Made by a program: the position numbers and the translations under genes. 21,898 nucleotides of DNA, from the IMG/VR virus record IMGVR_UViG_2718218402_000002, one strand, 5' to 3'. The DNA is from a virus (Duplodnaviria; Heunggongvirae; Uroviricota; Caudoviricetes). The notes under the pieces were generated by a model. The model searched no databases. It was not told where the DNA came from and saw only the letters and a list, made by a program, of their open reading frames with translations. Below, piece after piece: positions 3,024 through 15,186 of this stretch (position 1 is its first letter; each line of letters begins with the position of its first letter).

Positions 3024-3740
3024 TTAAATTCTGGTCCTTACAATATCAACCTGAAGATTCTTATCTTGTGCTGATTGATAAATGACAAACCTTTTACTAC
3101 CTGCATTGAAAGAAGTAGACAAAACCAGACAATTATCATAACGAGCAAGAACATAATACCAACCATCATTATAATTAATCATTTCATATTCTTTCTTAAA
3201 CTGCGGTTTGTAATATCCTGTCAGAAATGAAAAAAGCCAGAAATATGCCACAAAAGCAATCATCACAATCTCAAAAAAATGTTTTTTTATAAATGGCTTA
3301 TCATAGAAGCATGATACCGATAAAAATCGCCCATAAGATCTTATCGAAATTGTAACCGCCAGCGCAATCGCTGCTGACAGTAGCAAAAGAGGTACCTGAA
3401 TCTTCTGTCTCAATATAGAAAACTCAATAATTGCCGGCACAAACAATAATTCCACAGCAAAATAAAGGCGAAATACATTTAGCTCTTGCATAGAATGTTT
3501 TCTTTTCACTGCGAAAAAGAATACAACACCAATACCCCAACCGATAAGAAATATAGCAATGACGATAACTGCAAAAAATAAACTTCTGGCAACATCATCA
3601 ACACCTGCACCTACAATCCACCATGGGAAGCCGTAGTAAAAAGAAGTACCCCATCCATAGAAATAAGCACTCCCCCATCCAAGGCATCCCATGTAGGCAA
3701 TAAAAAGTGAAGAACTCCTGAGCAGTGCACCATCCTTCAT
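3024..3740 (-). CDS. Hypothetical polytopic membrane protein (moron between Q and holin)
   Basis: ORF 3024..3782 (252 aa). Preferred start is the ATG at 3740, preceded by GGGGTGG. Several hydrophobic segments N-terminally and a polar C-terminal domain. Markedly AT-rich versus flanking genes. No family recognised. Confidence 0.6.
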   Translation of the reverse strand: MKDGALLRSSSLFIAYMGCLGWGSAYFYGWGTSFYYGFPWWIVGAGVDDVARSLFFAVIVIAIFLIGWGIGVVFFFAVKRKHSMQELNVFRLYFAVELLFVPAIIEFSILRQKIQVPLLLLSAAIALAVTISIRSYGRFLSVSCFYDKPFIKKHFFEIVMIAFVAYFWLFSFLTGYYKPQFKKEYEMINYNDGWYYVLARYDNCLVLSTSFNAGSKRFVIYQSAQDKNLQVDIVRTRI

Positions 3741-3924
3741 AACCACCCCAATACAAGATGATAACATTGGCTTACAACTCATAACAAAAGCAATTCAATG
3801 CCGTCAAGAGGTTACAGGCTAAAAAAACTCTATTACATTGCAGTCAGCATGTTTACTACACAAATACAATTCAGAGCATAAAAACTACTCGGCGGCAGGT
3901 TATTGAGACTCATCAATGACATGT

Positions 3925-6255: not shown

Positions 6256-6395
6256 ACGTCCTCCTTTTCCTGCGGTAGTGGTAACACCCCTGTTGGTGTT
6301 CTTTCACACCGGAGACACCATCGATTCCAGTAAGGTTGCCCGGGTCGAAAGCGATCGTCTTCCTTTCGCTCTCCACATCGATAACAGTGCTTCAT
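6222..6395 (-). CDS. Small zinc-ribbon protein (NinD-position)
   Basis: Track ORF 6222..6413. An ATG at 6395 overlaps the methyltransferase stop (ATGA). CYRCG...CLRC motif. Confidence 0.4.
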
Positions 6396-6982
6396 GCGAT
6401 CACCATTTTGCATGGTTTAATCGCCATGCCGGGAGCCAGTTCAAAATCGGAGTCGCACTGATTGCCCCACATATCCCACCCGGTCACTTTGTCGCGGCTA
6501 AATAACTCACAGCGCGGCACGTCGCCAAGCAACTTAGCTAACATGTCTCTTACGATCGGTGGTTTTGCACTGTGCTCCATTCTCGGTGCGGTAAAGTGCT
6601 GGCATATTGAAGCGTCCATTCTCTCAGGCAACCGCCCTCGAACAGCAAACAAGCAATCCTCGCTATTTGCCCGGGTCATATGCCCCATTCCGATCGCACT
6701 GTTGCCTTTGTGCTTATTGGTTTTGTGCCAGGTAAAGCCTTTCATAGTCATCAACCTGAATCCCCACGACTCAACTACCTTTAGCGCTTCGGCTGGCTGT
6801 GTCGGCACCCACCACATCGCTAACAAGCAAGATTCTGGATCCGCTAAATCCCATACTGGCAGTCGGCAAATGTCCTGAACATTCATAACATCGTATTTAT
6901 GTCCAGCACCGCGATTGCCATCGTTGGCTTTGTCGCGATATTGCCAAGGCGGATCTGCGTAAATAAGTCGGTATTTGTTCAT
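6392..6982 (-). CDS. DNA N6-adenine methyltransferase (MT-A70-like, DPPW motif)
   Basis: 196 aa starting [15 protein letters not shown], the catalytic motif of N6-adenine methyltransferases. Sits where lambda carries ninC. Confidence 0.8.
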
Positions 6983-9409: not shown

Positions 9410-9706
9410 TCAGAATTGCATATCAATTTGCTTAGAGTCCCCGGCGGCCACCGGGGATTTTTTCTTTGTGATTCCATCAAGCGCATACTTAAAAGCCCTA
9501 CTAATCGGACTGATGTCTGATGCCATTCCGAAAGCACACAAGACCGAAGCAATAAACCTCCAGTCTGTTCTGCTTATCTTCGATTCATGACAGCCAATCA
9601 TCTTTGCCAGACCGCGCTGGGTAAGCGTTGACAGGTTGATGAGTAAATCTGTTTCTGCGCGATCAACGTCGCGCTGTGATAGTTTGCTGTAACTTGTTTG
9701 TGTCAT
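9410..9706 (-). CDS. cII: CII-like transcriptional activator (P22 c1 family)
   Basis: 98 aa, MTQTSYSKLSQRDVDRAETDLLINLSTLTQRGLAKMIGCHESKISR; HTH architecture of the cII family but not the lambda cII sequence. Immediately upstream of O. Confidence 0.75.
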   Translation of the reverse strand: MTQTSYSKLSQRDVDRAETDLLINLSTLTQRGLAKMIGCHESKISRTDWRFIASVLCAFGMASDISPISRAFKYALDGITKKKSPVAAGDSKQIDMQF

Positions 9707-9812: not shown

Positions 9813-10040
9813 TTATGCAGCCAGAAGGTTCTTTTTGCTTATTTCAAGCATTTCGCTTGCTTGATATTTGCCACCAGAAATCTCTTCGATTTTTGATGCG
9901 TATTTAGTTTTCCCAAAAAACTCAGTCTTAGGGAGGAAGCCGTTTTTGAGCCACTTATAGACAGCCCTTTCGCTAACTCCACAAGCCTTCGCAACTTCAG
10001 GGATGCCGACACCTTTAATCGGCTCATCAAGATTTTGCAT
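9813..10040 (-). CDS. cro: Cro-like repressor
   Basis: Track ORF 9813..10073; likely ATG at 10040 (75 aa). HTH GIPEVAKACGVSERAVYKWLK. Divergent from cI across the operator region. Confidence 0.75.
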   Translation of the reverse strand: MQNLDEPIKGVGIPEVAKACGVSERAVYKWLKNGFLPKTEFFGKTKYASKIEEISGGKYQASEMLEISKKNLLAA

Positions 10041-10055
10041 AGGAATACCCTTTTT

Positions 10056-10125
10056 CGTACTTTCAGTACGCATTATGATTGAACTGAAAGTTTTTGCAAG
10101 TGCTTTAGTATCGTACTCATGGTTC
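10056..10125. promoter_or_regulatory. OR region: three 13-bp palindromic operators with divergent pR and pRM
   Basis: GTACTTTCAGTAC (10057-10069), GAACTGAAAGTTT (10081-10093), GTACTCATGGTTC (10113-10125, over the cI ATG). Candidate pR on - strand: -35 TTGCAA (10094-10099), -10 CATAAT (revcomp of 10072-10077). Candidate pRM -10 TAGTAT (10106-10111). Confidence 0.55.
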
Positions 10126-10923: not shown

Positions 10924-11466
10924 GTGGCTAAAAAAGGCGACTTTAAGCCTACCCAGAAAGAGGTTGACCAAGCTATTACTCGCTTGAAAAAAGTAACTTT
11001 TAGCGGAGTTTCGTGGACCGGAAGTGAGGGACGAACCCCAATCTGGTTTAAATTGGATCTCAAAGCTTTTGATGAAATTGGCAACCCAATCACAGGCATA
11101 AGATTTATGCTTCACTGGCGTTCTCCTATCGTTGAAGGGGTGGATATAGTGAAGCTTTCATTTGTGATGTTTCTTCATGACAGGCGCATTTACGCGCTTG
11201 ACCCGTACCCTGCGCATAACAAGTCACACCGTAATAAATCTATAGTGCACCATCCAGATTTTGTTGAGGTGGCTCGAGGTCCTCACTATCACATGTACTT
11301 CGAATCAGCTGGGGAAGAAATTGCACTCAAGCTTGAAACGAACATCAAGCCAGATGATTTTTTTGGCTACTGGAATTATTTTTGCGAGGCGCTTAATATC
11401 ATATATGAAGGCAGCCCACCTTTACCGAATCAAGATAAATCAGGTCAGCTATCATGGGAAATGTAA
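10924..11466 (+). CDS. Hypothetical protein A of the cI-downstream cassette (rexA-position)
   Basis: 180 aa ORF with GTG start and no obvious SD; the first in-frame ATG would give 119 aa. His-rich segment HNKSHRNKSIVHHPDF...PHYHMY. No family recognised. Lower GC than neighbours. Confidence 0.5.
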   Translation: MAKKGDFKPTQKEVDQAITRLKKVTFSGVSWTGSEGRTPIWFKLDLKAFDEIGNPITGIRFMLHWRSPIVEGVDIVKLSFVMFLHDRRIYALDPYPAHNKSHRNKSIVHHPDFVEVARGPHYHMYFESAGEEIALKLETNIKPDDFFGYWNYFCEALNIIYEGSPPLPNQDKSGQLSWEM

Positions 11467-12230
11467 CGTGTTCAACAGTCATATCTAAGCTCGGGTTTGA
11501 ATGCCACCCAATGAGCGACACGTTGCTGCGCGTTATTAGTCCCTTCACATACTACGATGATTGTGAGCAGATAAGCGTATTCGTTCAAGAGATGAGTGGT
11601 CAGTATAGGGTTACAGACTACTGCGATACATTGATGAATATTGAATCACGCGGCATCCACCTGACTAAAAAGAAAATTGATCTGATCAGGTCATCACTCG
11701 CTTCGCAAGGAATTTCATTAAATGACTCTGGAGAGATATCTGCGTGGGCAGATGAGTCGTCCGTTGGACAGGTAACTGCAAATGTTATTCGTGGTGGGAT
11801 TCTTGCATCCGCCCAAACTGCTGATTGGTATGCTGAGGTCAAAGACGATAAGTTCGAAAAATGTGTAATCAGTTACTTAAAATCAGCAGGGCTTGGGAAG
11901 CGACTAGCCTTAAAGGAAAAAGTGAAAGGTATTAGTGGGCATAACATTACTGTTCCGTTAACGCTAAGGAATGAGTCTCGACTAATACCACCAAAACGCG
12001 GGTTTACGGTAAGCCTTGCCAGCAGTAAAGGATGGAATACTGCCCACTCAACAGTTGGGAAGATTGTTGACTTAAGTCAGGTCGTTCCTGACATAAACAA
12101 TAGATTTGTAATAGTTGACAGCGATGGGTTAACACCTGAGCTACAGCAACTATCACTACTATTTAATGATACCGCACGAGTGTTGCCATTCCATACCAGA
12201 GACTCTTGGATTGACTCTCTGGTAGCCTAG
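11454..12230 (+). CDS. Hypothetical protein B of the cI-downstream cassette (rexB-position)
   Basis: 258 aa. The ATG at 11454 overlaps the stop of protein A by 13 nt (alternative ATG at 11511). Soluble-looking, no family recognised. Confidence 0.55.
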   Translation: MGNVTCSTVISKLGFECHPMSDTLLRVISPFTYYDDCEQISVFVQEMSGQYRVTDYCDTLMNIESRGIHLTKKKIDLIRSSLASQGISLNDSGEISAWADESSVGQVTANVIRGGILASAQTADWYAEVKDDKFEKCVISYLKSAGLGKRLALKEKVKGISGHNITVPLTLRNESRLIPPKRGFTVSLASSKGWNTAHSTVGKIVDLSQVVPDINNRFVIVDSDGLTPELQQLSLLFNDTARVLPFHTRDSWIDSLVA

Positions 12231-12673: not shown

Positions 12674-13009
12674 ATGACGGTAATCGTGTACGGGAAATCA
12701 ACATTTGCAGGAAATGCCAAAACTCGCCGTCATGAGCGGCGCAGAAAGCTGGCTATCGAGCGTGATGCTATATGCAACATCATCGATTCGATCTTCGGCA
12801 CAGACAGTGAGGAACCTGTTCAGGAAGCCCCGAGAAAACGTTTAAGCCTTTCTGAAAAAGCAATATCACTCGGAAGCCTTCGCTGCCAGAAGGCAGAAGA
12901 AGTCGAGCGTAAACAGAACCGTATTTACTACCGCAAGCCACGCAGTGAAATGGGTGTGACTTGTGTTGGTCGCCAGAAAATGAAATTAGGCAGCAAACCA
13001 CTTATTTGA
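12674..13009 (+). CDS. N: Antiterminator N (P22 gene 24-like)
   Basis: Track ORF 12590..13009; ATG at 12674 preceded by GAGGAAAA. N-terminal arginine-rich motif GNAKTRRHERRRKLAIERD matches the P22 N RNA-binding motif as recalled. Confidence 0.85.
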   Translation: MTVIVYGKSTFAGNAKTRRHERRRKLAIERDAICNIIDSIFGTDSEEPVQEAPRKRLSLSEKAISLGSLRCQKAEEVERKQNRIYYRKPRSEMGVTCVGRQKMKLGSKPLI

Positions 13010-13017
13010 GGTGAGAT

Positions 13018-13104
13018 ATGGAAGAAGAATTTGAAGAGTTCGAAGAGCATCCGCAGGATGTGATGGAACAATACCAGGACTATCCGTATGACTACGACTA
13101 TTGA
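13018..13104 (+). CDS. Possible small acidic peptide (28 aa)
   Basis: MEEEFEEFEEHPQDVMEQYQDYPYDYDY, with GAGGTGAG upstream. Overlaps the ral start in another frame. Not in the ORF track. Confidence 0.25.
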   Translation: MEEEFEEFEEHPQDVMEQYQDYPYDYDY

Positions 13105-13288
13105 TAAAAATCAATGGTGTGGACAATTCAAGCGATGCAATGGATGCAAGCTGCAATCGGAATGCATGGTTAAGCCTGAAGAAATGTTTCCTGTAATGGA
13201 AGATGGGAAATATGTCGATAAATGGGCAATACGAACGACGGCAATGATTGCCAGAGAACTTGGTAAACAGAACAACAAGGCTGCCTGA
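13088..13288 (+). CDS. ral: Restriction alleviation protein Ral
   Basis: 66 aa, MTTTIDKNQWCGQFKRCNGCKLQSECM...; matches lambda Ral from memory in sequence, size and position just after N. Confidence 0.6.
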   Translation: MTTTIDKNQWCGQFKRCNGCKLQSECMVKPEEMFPVMEDGKYVDKWAIRTTAMIARELGKQNNKAA

Positions 13289-13324
13289 TGGTGGCCTTTA
13301 TTTTCTTATTTGAGAGGAATTAAT

Positions 13325-13948
13325 ATGTCATCAATCCGCTTAACTACGAGAATGAAAGAGGAAATCGCTCGTAACGCTTTAATTAAGTCTGGGGTTTTCA
13401 CTGAACTTGAAGAAGTAACAAAGTTAAAGAACCAGCTTGCACTTGACGCCAGAGTTATTGCGTTTGGCGGGAAAAAGAAAACCGAAGAAGTGGACCAGCT
13501 GGCATCAAAGTTAATGGCTGCAAGTGAGGAACTTCAAAAGCTTGGATGTTCATTTTACTCATGCGATGTCAGTTCAAGTTCGATTTATCTGACTGTATCT
13601 GGAAGAAGGGTTGGCTGGCATTCATACGGAAAAGACGGCAACGGTGAAGATATATTGCTCCCTACCCCCGACAAAGATAAATGCATGTTTGACGCAGAAC
13701 ACAAAATAACAAAAAGGTTTGATGAAATCTGCGCATTGCAACAAAAACTTGAAGCCAGGAAAAAGGATATCGAATCAAATGTATGGGCTGCTTTGAACTC
13801 AGTCACAACAGTTAAGCGACTTATTGAGGTCTGGCCTGAAAGCAAAGAGTTGCTACCAAAAGAAGCAGATAAAGCAAGTGCAGCACTTCCTGCTTTACGG
13901 GTAGAAGATTTGAATAAGATGATTGGACTTCCTTCCGAGGCCGCATAG
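13325..13948 (+). CDS. Hypothetical early-left protein (207 aa)
   Basis: Track ORF 13310..13948 (TTG); likely ATG at 13325. Predicted coiled-coil N-terminal half. No family recognised. Confidence 0.55.
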   Translation: MSSIRLTTRMKEEIARNALIKSGVFTELEEVTKLKNQLALDARVIAFGGKKKTEEVDQLASKLMAASEELQKLGCSFYSCDVSSSSIYLTVSGRRVGWHSYGKDGNGEDILLPTPDKDKCMFDAEHKITKRFDEICALQQKLEARKKDIESNVWAALNSVTTVKRLIEVWPESKELLPKEADKASAALPALRVEDLNKMIGLPSEAA

Positions 13949-13963
13949 TCGGCCTTTATTTTT
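13939..13963 (+). terminator. Intrinsic terminator
   Basis: GGCCG-catagt-CGGCC followed by TTTATTTTT, overlapping the stop of the 207-aa ORF. Confidence 0.6.
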
Positions 13964-13992
13964 GGCACAAACAACAGAATAAACACTGCACT

Positions 13993-14020
13993 GTGTATTC
14001 ATTCCAACGAGTGAATACAC
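13993..14020. promoter_or_regulatory. Perfect 9-bp inverted repeat (GTGTATTCA-N10-TGAATACAC)
   Basis: Read directly in the intergenic region 13964-14121; candidate protein-binding site or RNA stem. Confidence 0.3.
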
Positions 14021-14081
14021 GGAGCAATGTCGCTCGTAACTAAACAGGAGCCGACTTGTTCTGATTATTTGAAATCTTCTT

Positions 14082-14109
14082 TGCCCTCTAATGTGAGGGC
14101 AGTTTTTTT
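14082..14109 (+). terminator. Strong intrinsic terminator directly upstream of an RBS
   Basis: TGCCCTC-taatgt-GAGGGCA followed by GTTTTTTT; GGAGG and the ATG at 14122 follow within 15 nt. Confidence 0.7.
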
Positions 14110-14121
14110 GACGGAGGAATT

Positions 14122-14538
14122 ATGGAAATTACAGATATTCTGGTTAATCCAGATAATTACGACCAATTCAATATCTCTACTCAATCAGTTGATTTAGGTT
14201 GTGCAACTGTCAGCGCATGGCTACTTAATGGTAAACAGTTGGATAAATGCCTTGATGCACATATGACGGTTAACAGCTTCCTTGCAGAAAAAACACACTG
14301 GCAAGATGCTGGAGGGAAATATGCTGGATGGCTTGAAAGCATGGGATTTGAATATCAATCTGATGAAGGTTGGTGGAGCCTTATAGCTGTAACGCCTGAG
14401 ACAATAGAATGCTTCGTTAAATACTCAAACGACGATGACTATAAACACCAGGTAGATTCTGCGATAGAAAGATACAAAAGAAAATCGTTCAACCACGAAA
14501 TATCATCAGTTCTTGATTTCATAGAAGTCTTCAAATAA
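14122..14538 (+). CDS. Hypothetical protein (138 aa)
   Basis: Good RBS (GGAGG). Acidic, Trp-rich. Same length as lambda Gam but the sequence does not resemble Gam as I recall it. Confidence 0.6.
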   Translation: MEITDILVNPDNYDQFNISTQSVDLGCATVSAWLLNGKQLDKCLDAHMTVNSFLAEKTHWQDAGGKYAGWLESMGFEYQSDEGWWSLIAVTPETIECFVKYSNDDDYKHQVDSAIERYKRKSFNHEISSVLDFIEVFK

Positions 14539-14622
14539 GCCGCCTGAGCGCGGCTTTACCGCATACCAATAATGCTTCACCAGAGGCATTTTCGTTATGC
14601 AATCAAACAGAAGGAGCATCCT

Positions 14623-14793
14623 ATGCAACAGTTCGCTATTGCAGGGGCGGCATCGGTTCGCCCTTTCAACCCGATTTTATCGGTACAGCATTCACGAAAA
14701 AACATTTTAACCGGAGCAGACTTTAAACAACCAAGAATGAAAAGTTTGCTCGAAAAGCTTTGGGATATTTTGAAACAACAAGGCCGTCCATGA
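14623..14793 (+). CDS. cIII: CIII-like protein (FtsH inhibitor family)
   Basis: Track ORF 14572..14793; ATG at 14623 preceded by AAGGAG. MQQFAIAG...KSLLEKLWDILKQQGRP resembles lambda CIII (MQYAIAG...ESLLERITRKLRDGWKRLIDILNQPG). Confidence 0.6.
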   Translation: MQQFAIAGAASVRPFNPILSVQHSRKNILTGADFKQPRMKSLLEKLWDILKQQGRP

Positions 14794-14897
14794 GTTTTAC
14801 AGATAACTGGTCAGACGAAGAATTCATTCGTCAGATGAACAAAATGCTCAATCAGCACAAAGAACAGGAGAAAGATGATGATTCTGACTCTGAATGA
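14790..14897 (+). CDS. Possible small acidic ORF (35 aa) at the kil position
   Basis: The ATG overlaps the cIII stop (ATGA). MSFTDNWSDEEFIRQMNKMLNQHKEQEKDDDSDSE. Not in the track. Confidence 0.3.
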   Translation: MSFTDNWSDEEFIRQMNKMLNQHKEQEKDDDSDSE

Positions 14898-15186
14898 TAA
14901 GCGTGAAATATCGCAAATAATCGCAAGTTTTACTGATGAAGATTACGAGCGAATCAACAGTGAAGTTGATCGCCTCTGCAAACGTTGCGACCCAATAAGC
15001 GAAATGCTTCGCTCATATAAACCAGATGAACACACTAAGGACGCTATCGACTGGCTGGAAGATGATGACTGTAACTATCAGGAAAAAGCCGCTGAATGGT
15101 TCTGGGATGCAATAACCGAAAGAGTTAAGGCTGAATATGCCTTCGCAATATTCAAACGCAGACATATTTATGGAGAAGCTGCATGA
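14875..15186 (+). CDS. Hypothetical protein (103 aa) immediately upstream of recT
   Basis: RBS AGGAG. Its stop overlaps the recT ATG (ATGA). Occupies the gam-equivalent position; no family recognised. Confidence 0.55.
   Translation: MMILTLNDKREISQIIASFTDEDYERINSEVDRLCKRCDPISEMLRSYKPDEHTKDAIDWLEDDDCNYQEKAAEWFWDAITERVKAEYAFAIFKRRHIYGEAA

Follow-up and report, generated by a model that had tools for sequence, protein, structure and literature searches.

What do the genes around ral contribute to a lambda-like phage, and do they act against host defences? The question arises at positions 13,018 to 14,538 of a viral sequence of 21,898 nucleotides (IMG/VR record IMGVR_UViG_2718218402_000002; Caudoviricetes), the whole of which we term the window. 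Here four open reading frames (ORFs) follow the gene for the antiterminator N. The original prediction, made from the sequence alone, described them as encoding a small acidic peptide, the anti-restriction factor Ral, a 207-residue protein and an acidic 138-residue protein, and took all but Ral for unassignable and, from their place beside ral, for candidate counter-defence genes. All four ORFs are present where it put them, and the peptide and the 138-residue protein are indeed acidic, with isoelectric points (pI) of 4.05 and 4.51 and a net charge of -12 each. Only the 138-residue protein, however, proves unassignable: the peptide is the product of the lambda gene orf28, and the 207-residue protein belongs to the family named Nmad5 by Pfam and PGAP.

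The interval is probably a 'Ral accessory region' of the N-antiterminated early-left (pL) operon, a mosaic whose uncharacterised members act at the interface of phage and host. It would consist of three exchangeable units: the orf28-ral pair, an Nmad5 cassette, and a cassette for the 138-residue protein (PHROG 8967) with a structured leader of its own. The region and its borders are laid out as follows, hairpins being taken from a terminator scan.

12674-13009, plus strand: N (antiterminator); PF25694, E 3.6e-26
13018-13104, plus strand: orf28, 28 residues, with a GAGGTGA Shine-Dalgarno sequence; phrog_16060, 7e-19
13088-13288, plus strand: ral; PF11058, E 1.6e-48
13277-13304, plus strand: terminator-like hairpin and T-run at the end of ral, ending in GGCCTTTATTTT
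13325-13948, plus strand: Nmad5-family gene, 207 residues, with a GAGAGGA Shine-Dalgarno sequence; PF18757, 1.2e-69; phrog_1965, 1e-81
13937-13962, plus strand: terminator-like hairpin and T-run overlapping the Nmad5 stop codon and carrying GGCCTTTATTTT
13984-14121, plus strand: structured leader of the 138-residue cassette, ~140 nucleotides; fold z-score -6.2
14122-14538, plus strand: gene for the 138-residue acidic protein, PHROG 8967, with a GGAGG Shine-Dalgarno sequence; phrog_8967, 2.7e-87
14571-14597, plus strand: weak terminator-like hairpin between the 138-residue gene and cIII
14623-14793, plus strand: cIII, the right border of the accessory region; phrog_550, 1e-22

Each unit ends in a terminator-like hairpin that doubles as a recombination joint. 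Four such hairpins were found, all on the plus strand, at 13277 (end of ral), 13937 (end of Nmad5), 14081 (before the 138-residue gene) and 14571 (after it). Those of ral and Nmad5 end in the same 12-mer, GGCCTTTATTTT, and form the left and right joints of the Nmad5 cassette. In Escherichia coli R18 (positions 2308-2400 of locus L007) the ral-type hairpin runs straight into the sequence found behind Nmad5 here, as would be expected of an empty site for that cassette. The leader of the third cassette holds a long hairpin (13991-14022) and the terminator-like hairpin (14081-14102), followed by T7 and the GGAGG Shine-Dalgarno sequence, and three E. coli prophages keep it ahead of the 138-residue gene although the genes farther upstream differ among them. 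Its role may be that of an attenuator, of a small RNA or of nothing more than a recombination joint; neither the leader nor the window matched any family in Rfam. Hairpins at gene ends, a shared 12-mer, the R18 site and a travelling leader are together the marks of mosaic, moron-like cassettes. At the left border, a joint made up of the N stop codon, a Shine-Dalgarno sequence and ATGGAAG is common to mEp213, HK97 and Stx phages that carry orf184-type genes, not orf28.

The same cassettes appear alone or with other partners in other prophages. Among 5426 complete E. coli genomes, where the best full-length DNA match to 13000-14600 was at 95.6%, Nmad5 was found in 210 and the 138-residue gene in 36, and a single match spanned both in at most 13 (12 among the matches listed). 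Joint matches being far fewer than single ones, the two genes are not an obligate pair. Sporadic and independently assorting, these cassettes therefore fit accessory cargo. All coding sequences here are under purifying selection, with a ratio of non-synonymous to synonymous substitution rates (dN/dS) well below 1; positive selection, considered as an arms-race signature, was not seen at the whole-gene level. Because of the hairpins, expression would be expected, by comparison with lambda, to be N-dependent and delayed-early only, following infection or induction.

The first unit is the lambda pair. orf28 encodes MEEEFEEFEEHPQDVMEQYQDYPYDYDY, an acidic and aromatic peptide, and overlaps the start of ral by 17 nucleotides in a different frame. 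Its product is identical to that of lambda orf28 (lambda imm434 coding sequence 34271-34357), and Ral is identical to lambda Ral at 66 of 66 residues (BLASTP), with a full-length PF11058 match of 162.5 bits against a Pfam gathering cut-off of 25; the overlap, the pL operon and the orientation are likewise those of the lambda pair (lambdap47/lambdap46). Lambda Ral relieves type I restriction by boosting the modification of unmodified DNA, and since the proteins are identical we infer that Ral acts here as in lambda. DNA of the pair is present in 254 phage records, among them lambda, P22, ST64T, N7 and HK140. What differs is the setting: sieB lies between N and the pair in lambda, P22 and HK140, whereas the pair follows N directly in this phage, N7 and ST64T, and downstream of ral the place of Nmad5 and the 138-residue gene is taken in lambda by ea10. 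In lambda, orf28, ral and ea10 are nonessential, with ral turning conditionally essential when the host has type I restriction (PMC10695390); the genes of the interval would, in the same way, be dispensable for plaque formation. The literature searched gave no function for orf28, which is likely to be a co-translated acidic peptide acting with or alongside Ral.

The 207-residue protein matches PF18757 at 234.9 bits against a cut-off of 27, over model positions 1-206 of 206. Its homologues form 71 clusters across Enterobacterales, and in E. coli prophages they bear the RefSeq/PGAP name 'Nmad5 family putative nucleotide modification protein'. By tblastn, full-length relatives are found in Stx phages, HK542, SPN3UB, Vibrio phages and N4-like phages, and in Yuavirus/M6-like, Bordetella and Dhillonvirus phages recognisable similarity is confined to the C-terminal 85-100 residues. 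Conservation peaks at this C-terminus (A155, N158-S159-V160, T162, K164-R165, W170-P171-E172, P189, L196-N197, P203), with the motif K164-R165-x4-W170-P171-E172 ... LPAL.V.DLN..IGLP; pairwise dN/dS against other prophage alleles is 0.21-0.30. The gene appears frameshifted in E. coli 23CRST025 (locus L031, 3826-4450) and split in two in many O157 Stx2a phages, and is therefore readily lost.

An AlphaFold2 model of this Nmad5 is confident (pLDDT 84) and comprises three helices at the N-terminus, a beta-hairpin and a long helix, along with a pair of short helices that cover the WPE motif and a flexible tail, without a visible enzyme-like fold. A profile search of PDB sequences gave no match below E 0.1, and Foldseek against viral models (BFVD) returned other Nmad5 proteins only. 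Nmad5 is most likely helical and non-enzymatic, a binding protein or an adaptor, and the conserved basic-WPE stretch at its C-terminus would form the functional surface.

The same segment provides the only concrete, experimental lead for an anti-defence role in this interval. Dhillonvirus mutants that escape the Tmn defence system carry a causal change in nmad5, K296E in SM_S22 or K216E in SM_A8, and deletion of nmad5 gave no escape from Tmn; the gene could not be cloned and was apparently toxic (PMC11846954). In the SM_S22 protein (CDS0006 of PP627283) NTDK-K296-LIKAWPE aligns with TTVK164-R165-LIEVWPE here, such that K296 corresponds to R165, and K216 in another Dhillonvirus aligns likewise. 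The residue changed on escape is a nearly invariant basic position, five before the invariant WPE; since the change strikes such a residue near WPE, the alignment points to the basic-WPE surface as the functional interface of the family. Members of PF18757, including Dhillonvirus nmad5 (Yamashita et al. 2025), conserve both an N-terminal RLT...I..NAL helix and the C-terminal K/R-x4-WPE ... L.V..LN..G.P, although the Dhillonvirus protein has insertions of ~50 residues that are absent from the 207-residue protein and is encoded beside capsid genes, not in an early-left operon. As annotated (334 residues; locus L028, 5005-6009), SM_S22 CDS0006 begins with 80 extra residues, which overlap the oppositely oriented scaffold gene and are missing from homologues; its true start is probably M81, matching the 'truncated' SM_A8 form.

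Tmn is directly activated by the RIIB protein of T2, described as an early replisome component (2026 preprint, PMC13001434). Taken together with the replication-module neighbourhoods of Nmad5, this suggests by analogy that Nmad5 is made early and can be 'seen' by defences. Nmad5 would then be an early protein standing where phage and host immunity meet, either sensed by defences or a single mutation away from escaping them, because it lies beside replication or nucleotide-metabolism genes elsewhere and because the same surface decides the outcome with Tmn in Dhillonvirus.

The 138-residue protein is the true orphan of the set. It has no Pfam or NCBIfam match, PHROG 8967 carries no function, and its close relatives form 10 clusters only. 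A family profile run with HMMER against 1.8 billion representatives collected 62 proteins, most of ~85-160 residues, with the shared core D-W-G-G-x-Y-A-x-W-L ... G-W-W-S ... A ... P-x-N-I-x-x-F, present here as D62-x-G-G-x-Y67-A-x-W70-L71 ... G83-W84-W85-S86 ... A89 ... F98. Pfam scanning of 53 members gave three scattered single-member matches, none common to the family, and the profile had no match below E 0.1 in the PDB. The gene is selected as coding sequence: dN/dS is 0-0.24 in five of six comparisons among E. coli prophages (the sixth, 0.48, resting on three differences) and 0.08 against a 64%-identical homologue.

In GenBank phages, 115 records hold a homologue of the 138-residue protein, all at 60-80% identity, and the hosts of the gene among the matches listed are all rV5-like (Vequintavirinae) virulent myophages at 66-67% identity. 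There it sits inside long runs of small unannotated early genes. The Vequintavirinae protein (e.g. AlexBoehm bas56_0086) is also 138 residues long, 66-67% identical and colinear, with a hairpin and T-run just upstream of its gene, although its carriers are virulent ~136-kb myophages with the gene in a small-early-gene run and the present setting is the pL operon of a temperate phage. In a scan of GTDB contigs, which gave two loci, one Escherichia sp. contig held the only near-identical alleles, and Dryocola an allele at 75% identity. Most likely the protein is a small, acidic binder of host proteins that travels among temperate and virulent coliphages.

How far does this bear out an anti-defence role? 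As a statement about the region, the idea is established by the survey of Silas et al. (bioRxiv 10.1101/2023.04.06.535777), by orf184 and by P22 gene 17. That survey used Ral as a positive control and placed 'Ral' regions among its top-scoring phage accessory regions (slides 2, 11 and 14); it also found that the gop-beta-cII abortive system is triggered by orf184, a 107-residue product from a ral region, whose gene comes immediately behind N in mEp213. In P22 the position before c3 is taken by gene 17, for which the record states 'allows growth on Fels2 lysogen'. The interval from N to cIII is hypervariable and hosts both counter-defence genes and defence triggers, which supports the original prediction as regards the region; similarity of the present genes to known anti-defence proteins was not found. 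They share with the known Ral-region genes (orf184; P22 gene 17, orf78 and orf87; lambda ea10) the slot between N and cIII, small size, frequent acidity, patchy occurrence and terminator-bounded organization, but neither sequence nor profile similarity links them to orf184, gp17 or Ea10, whose phenotypes or annotated roles are gop-beta-cII triggering, growth on Fels-2 lysogens and single-stranded DNA (ssDNA) binding. None of orf28, Nmad5 and the 138-residue gene is among the 200 accessory genes of that survey (motif searches of its sequence table), and PADLOC gave no match for any of the three; NCBIfam gave none either. In location they do agree with anti-defence genes: they adjoin ral, occur patchily, assort independently and lie in a ranked region.

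We can put forward only tentatively that at least one of the three genes is a new counter-defence factor: Nmad5 might use its basic-WPE surface to engage immunity of the Tmn type (YobI/KAP NTPase), the 138-residue protein might inhibit an E. coli defence in a way useful to lambdoid and rV5-like phages alike, or orf28 might mimic DNA or the tail of the single-stranded DNA-binding protein (SSB), assisting Ral against type I enzymes. Several observations weigh against the accessory-region account. None of the genes showed sequence, profile or fold similarity to a known anti-defence protein (DNA mimics of the Ocr/ArdA type, Gam/Abc2, other named inhibitors) or to a solved structure, and the structure model of the 138-residue protein is too weak to exclude a known fold. 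The Tmn result concerns a distant Nmad5 (another Dhillonvirus homologue aligns over about half of the protein at ~33% identity by tblastn), and wild-type Nmad5 is perhaps irrelevant to Tmn, since escape is by gain-of-function missense change and deletion has no effect. The four terminator-like sites compare with 3.0 +/- 1.8 in shuffled sequence, an enrichment that is not significant, so that only their intergenic placement is telling. The timing of expression is carried over from lambda, and an anti-defence effect of Nmad5, the 138-residue protein or orf28 is a reasonable guess.

Homology to recombination or replication accessory proteins would have told against counter-defence, and none was found by sequence; both families are nevertheless often beside replication, nucleotide-metabolism or recombination genes in other phages. 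An alternative is accordingly that the 138-residue protein, and possibly Nmad5, is a recombination or replication accessory, for example one that modulates single-strand annealing or inhibits a host nuclease. Remote homologues of the 138-residue protein are encoded in early regions of phages; one overlaps the start of an ERF gene (locus L013), others lie 2-4 kb from YqaJ and RecT (L011) or near YqaJ (L015), and one is followed at ~3.4 kb by an AAA_24 ATPase gene (L017). In this phage, as in all E. coli and Dryocola prophages readable downstream, the gene lies directly upstream of cIII and ahead of a recombinase module, in the slot that in lambda is filled by Ea10, annotated as an ssDNA-binding protein. 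Yet the gene has five different upstream partners, and one allele, at 98-100% protein identity, accompanies downstream modules of three types (RecT/Gp157, Erf/Abc2 and Rad52-like/SSB), such that it has no fixed recombinase partner: instead of stable linkage to one type, RecT, Erf and Rad52-like recombinases were all seen. Within 4-6 kb of the homologue in rV5-like phages there is no annotated or called recombinase. Nor is there any sequence relation to candidates from the same neighbourhood: lambda Ea10, tried as a relative from the same slot, shows no similarity, and hhalign gave the profile a probability of at most ~1% with each of orf184, P22 gp17 and the neighbouring 103-residue protein. 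Early operons of temperate phages hold recombinases anyway, and their proximity is therefore weak evidence. We judge this alternative unlikely.

A second alternative would make Nmad5 an accessory component in a pathway for modifying the bases of phage DNA, possibly acting alongside the MT-A70 methyltransferase encoded at 6395-6982 of the window. The PGAP label points this way, as do gene orders elsewhere: in Yuavirus Nmad5 comes directly after a 5-hydroxymethyldeoxyuridine (5-hmdU) DNA kinase and before a deoxyuridine monophosphate hydroxymethylase, and in an N4-like Salmonella phage directly after ThyX. The family name itself rests on such gene neighbourhood. Set against this, Nmad5 in lambdoid prophages stands alone between N or ral and cIII, with the methylase ~6 kb off in another operon; the window ORFs scanned include none of the genes of a base-modification context, whether thymidylate-synthase homologue, 5-hmdU kinase or glycosyl or aminoacyl transferase; the confident model is of a coiled-coil-like helical protein with no enzyme-like match; and neighbours elsewhere are capsid genes in Dhillonvirus and nin genes in SPN3UB. 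Within Dhillonvirus SM_S22 the gene lies on the opposite strand between head genes, and in Hungariovirus among small early genes. The term 'DNA modification enzyme' has been used for Nmad5 (PMC11846954). Because the gene stands alone in lambdoid prophages and the window lacks modification genes, we regard 'nucleotide modification' as unproven for this Nmad5 and probably wrong as an enzymatic description; as a name it is probably misleading in lambdoid prophages. The pathway role is improbable, and it and the replication- or recombination-accessory role both come out weakened beside the accessory-region account.

Whether these ORFs are genes at all could be asked of orf28 especially. Across six phages its frame shows five synonymous third-position changes (variable codons Pro CCG/CCT/CCC, Tyr TAT/TAC and Pro CCG/CCA/CCT) and two non-synonymous ones, both in ST64T, and the sequence 5' of its ribosome-binding site is unrelated between the six. 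This third-position pattern argues that the peptide is translated and selected, even though its gene partly overlaps the ribosome-binding site of ral. orf28 is intact in P22 (locus L025, 1525-1611; protein as in lambda) and in ST64T (L026; two substitutions), and is annotated in neither record. That orf28, and perhaps other ORFs, are chance frames or remnants whose DNA is kept as the leader and ribosome-binding site of ral is very improbable: orf28 is very short, of low-complexity composition and unannotated in P22, ST64T and N7, and its 3' end, covering the Shine-Dalgarno sequence and start codon of ral, could alone account for conservation of part of the DNA, but third positions of its frame take the variation, its protein is identical in five of the six phages, it has a strong Shine-Dalgarno sequence and a PHROG family, and both larger genes match their families over the full length, with dN/dS <0.5. 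All four ORFs match phage protein families and the selection pattern favours coding, and hence they are not chance frames.

The window as a whole is a segment of a lambdoid (lambda-like) prophage, with its other genes arranged as follows.

Minus strand of the window: Rha, Rz, lysozyme, holin, Q, NinI-like phosphatase, NinG, MT-A70 methylase, NinB, Ren, P and O
9410-9706 and 9813-10073, minus strand: ORFs for cII and cro, assigned by position only
Plus strand: cI, two rex-slot genes, then the pL operon up to xis and int

With cI, the rex-slot genes and the pL operon up to xis and int all on the plus strand, this is the early-left direction; the orientation that the original prediction had assumed is borne out by the layout.

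Some other loci of the window stand out. The rexAB slot between cI and N (10924-12230, plus strand) holds two overlapping genes, one of phrog_2017 and one for a DUF1828 protein of phrog_1960, which have weak PADLOC matches to the candidate defence system PDC-M24A/B (E 1.5e-3 and 6e-7) and are possibly a defence pair carried by the prophage. Between Q and the holin gene, an interval used as a slot by Stx and other morons, an island of 33-39% guanine plus cytosine carries a 252-residue ORF (3024-3782, minus strand) of PHROG 1521, without a Pfam family. The MT-A70 family DNA methyltransferase of the nin region (6395-6982, minus strand) is unlinked to Nmad5 and is possibly a self-protection methylase. 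After cIII, in place of lambda kil and gam, come, just before RecT, a very acidic peptide of ~35 residues (14790-14897, plus strand, phrog_17766) and an acidic 103-residue protein (14875-15186, plus strand, phrog_3486), the gene for the latter staying beside RecT in Dryocola, Kapi1 and HK140.

The main yield so far is a clearer annotation: of four supposed unknowns, two are lambda genes, one belongs to a named family and one is a true orphan. If Nmad5 or the 138-residue protein did prove to be a counter-defence factor, this would give a function to two phage families, Nmad5 being widespread across phage groups, and would explain why the basic-WPE motif of Nmad5 controls sensitivity to Tmn. It would also supply a natural set of cassette combinations for study, beside the mechanistically thin pair of Ral and orf28.

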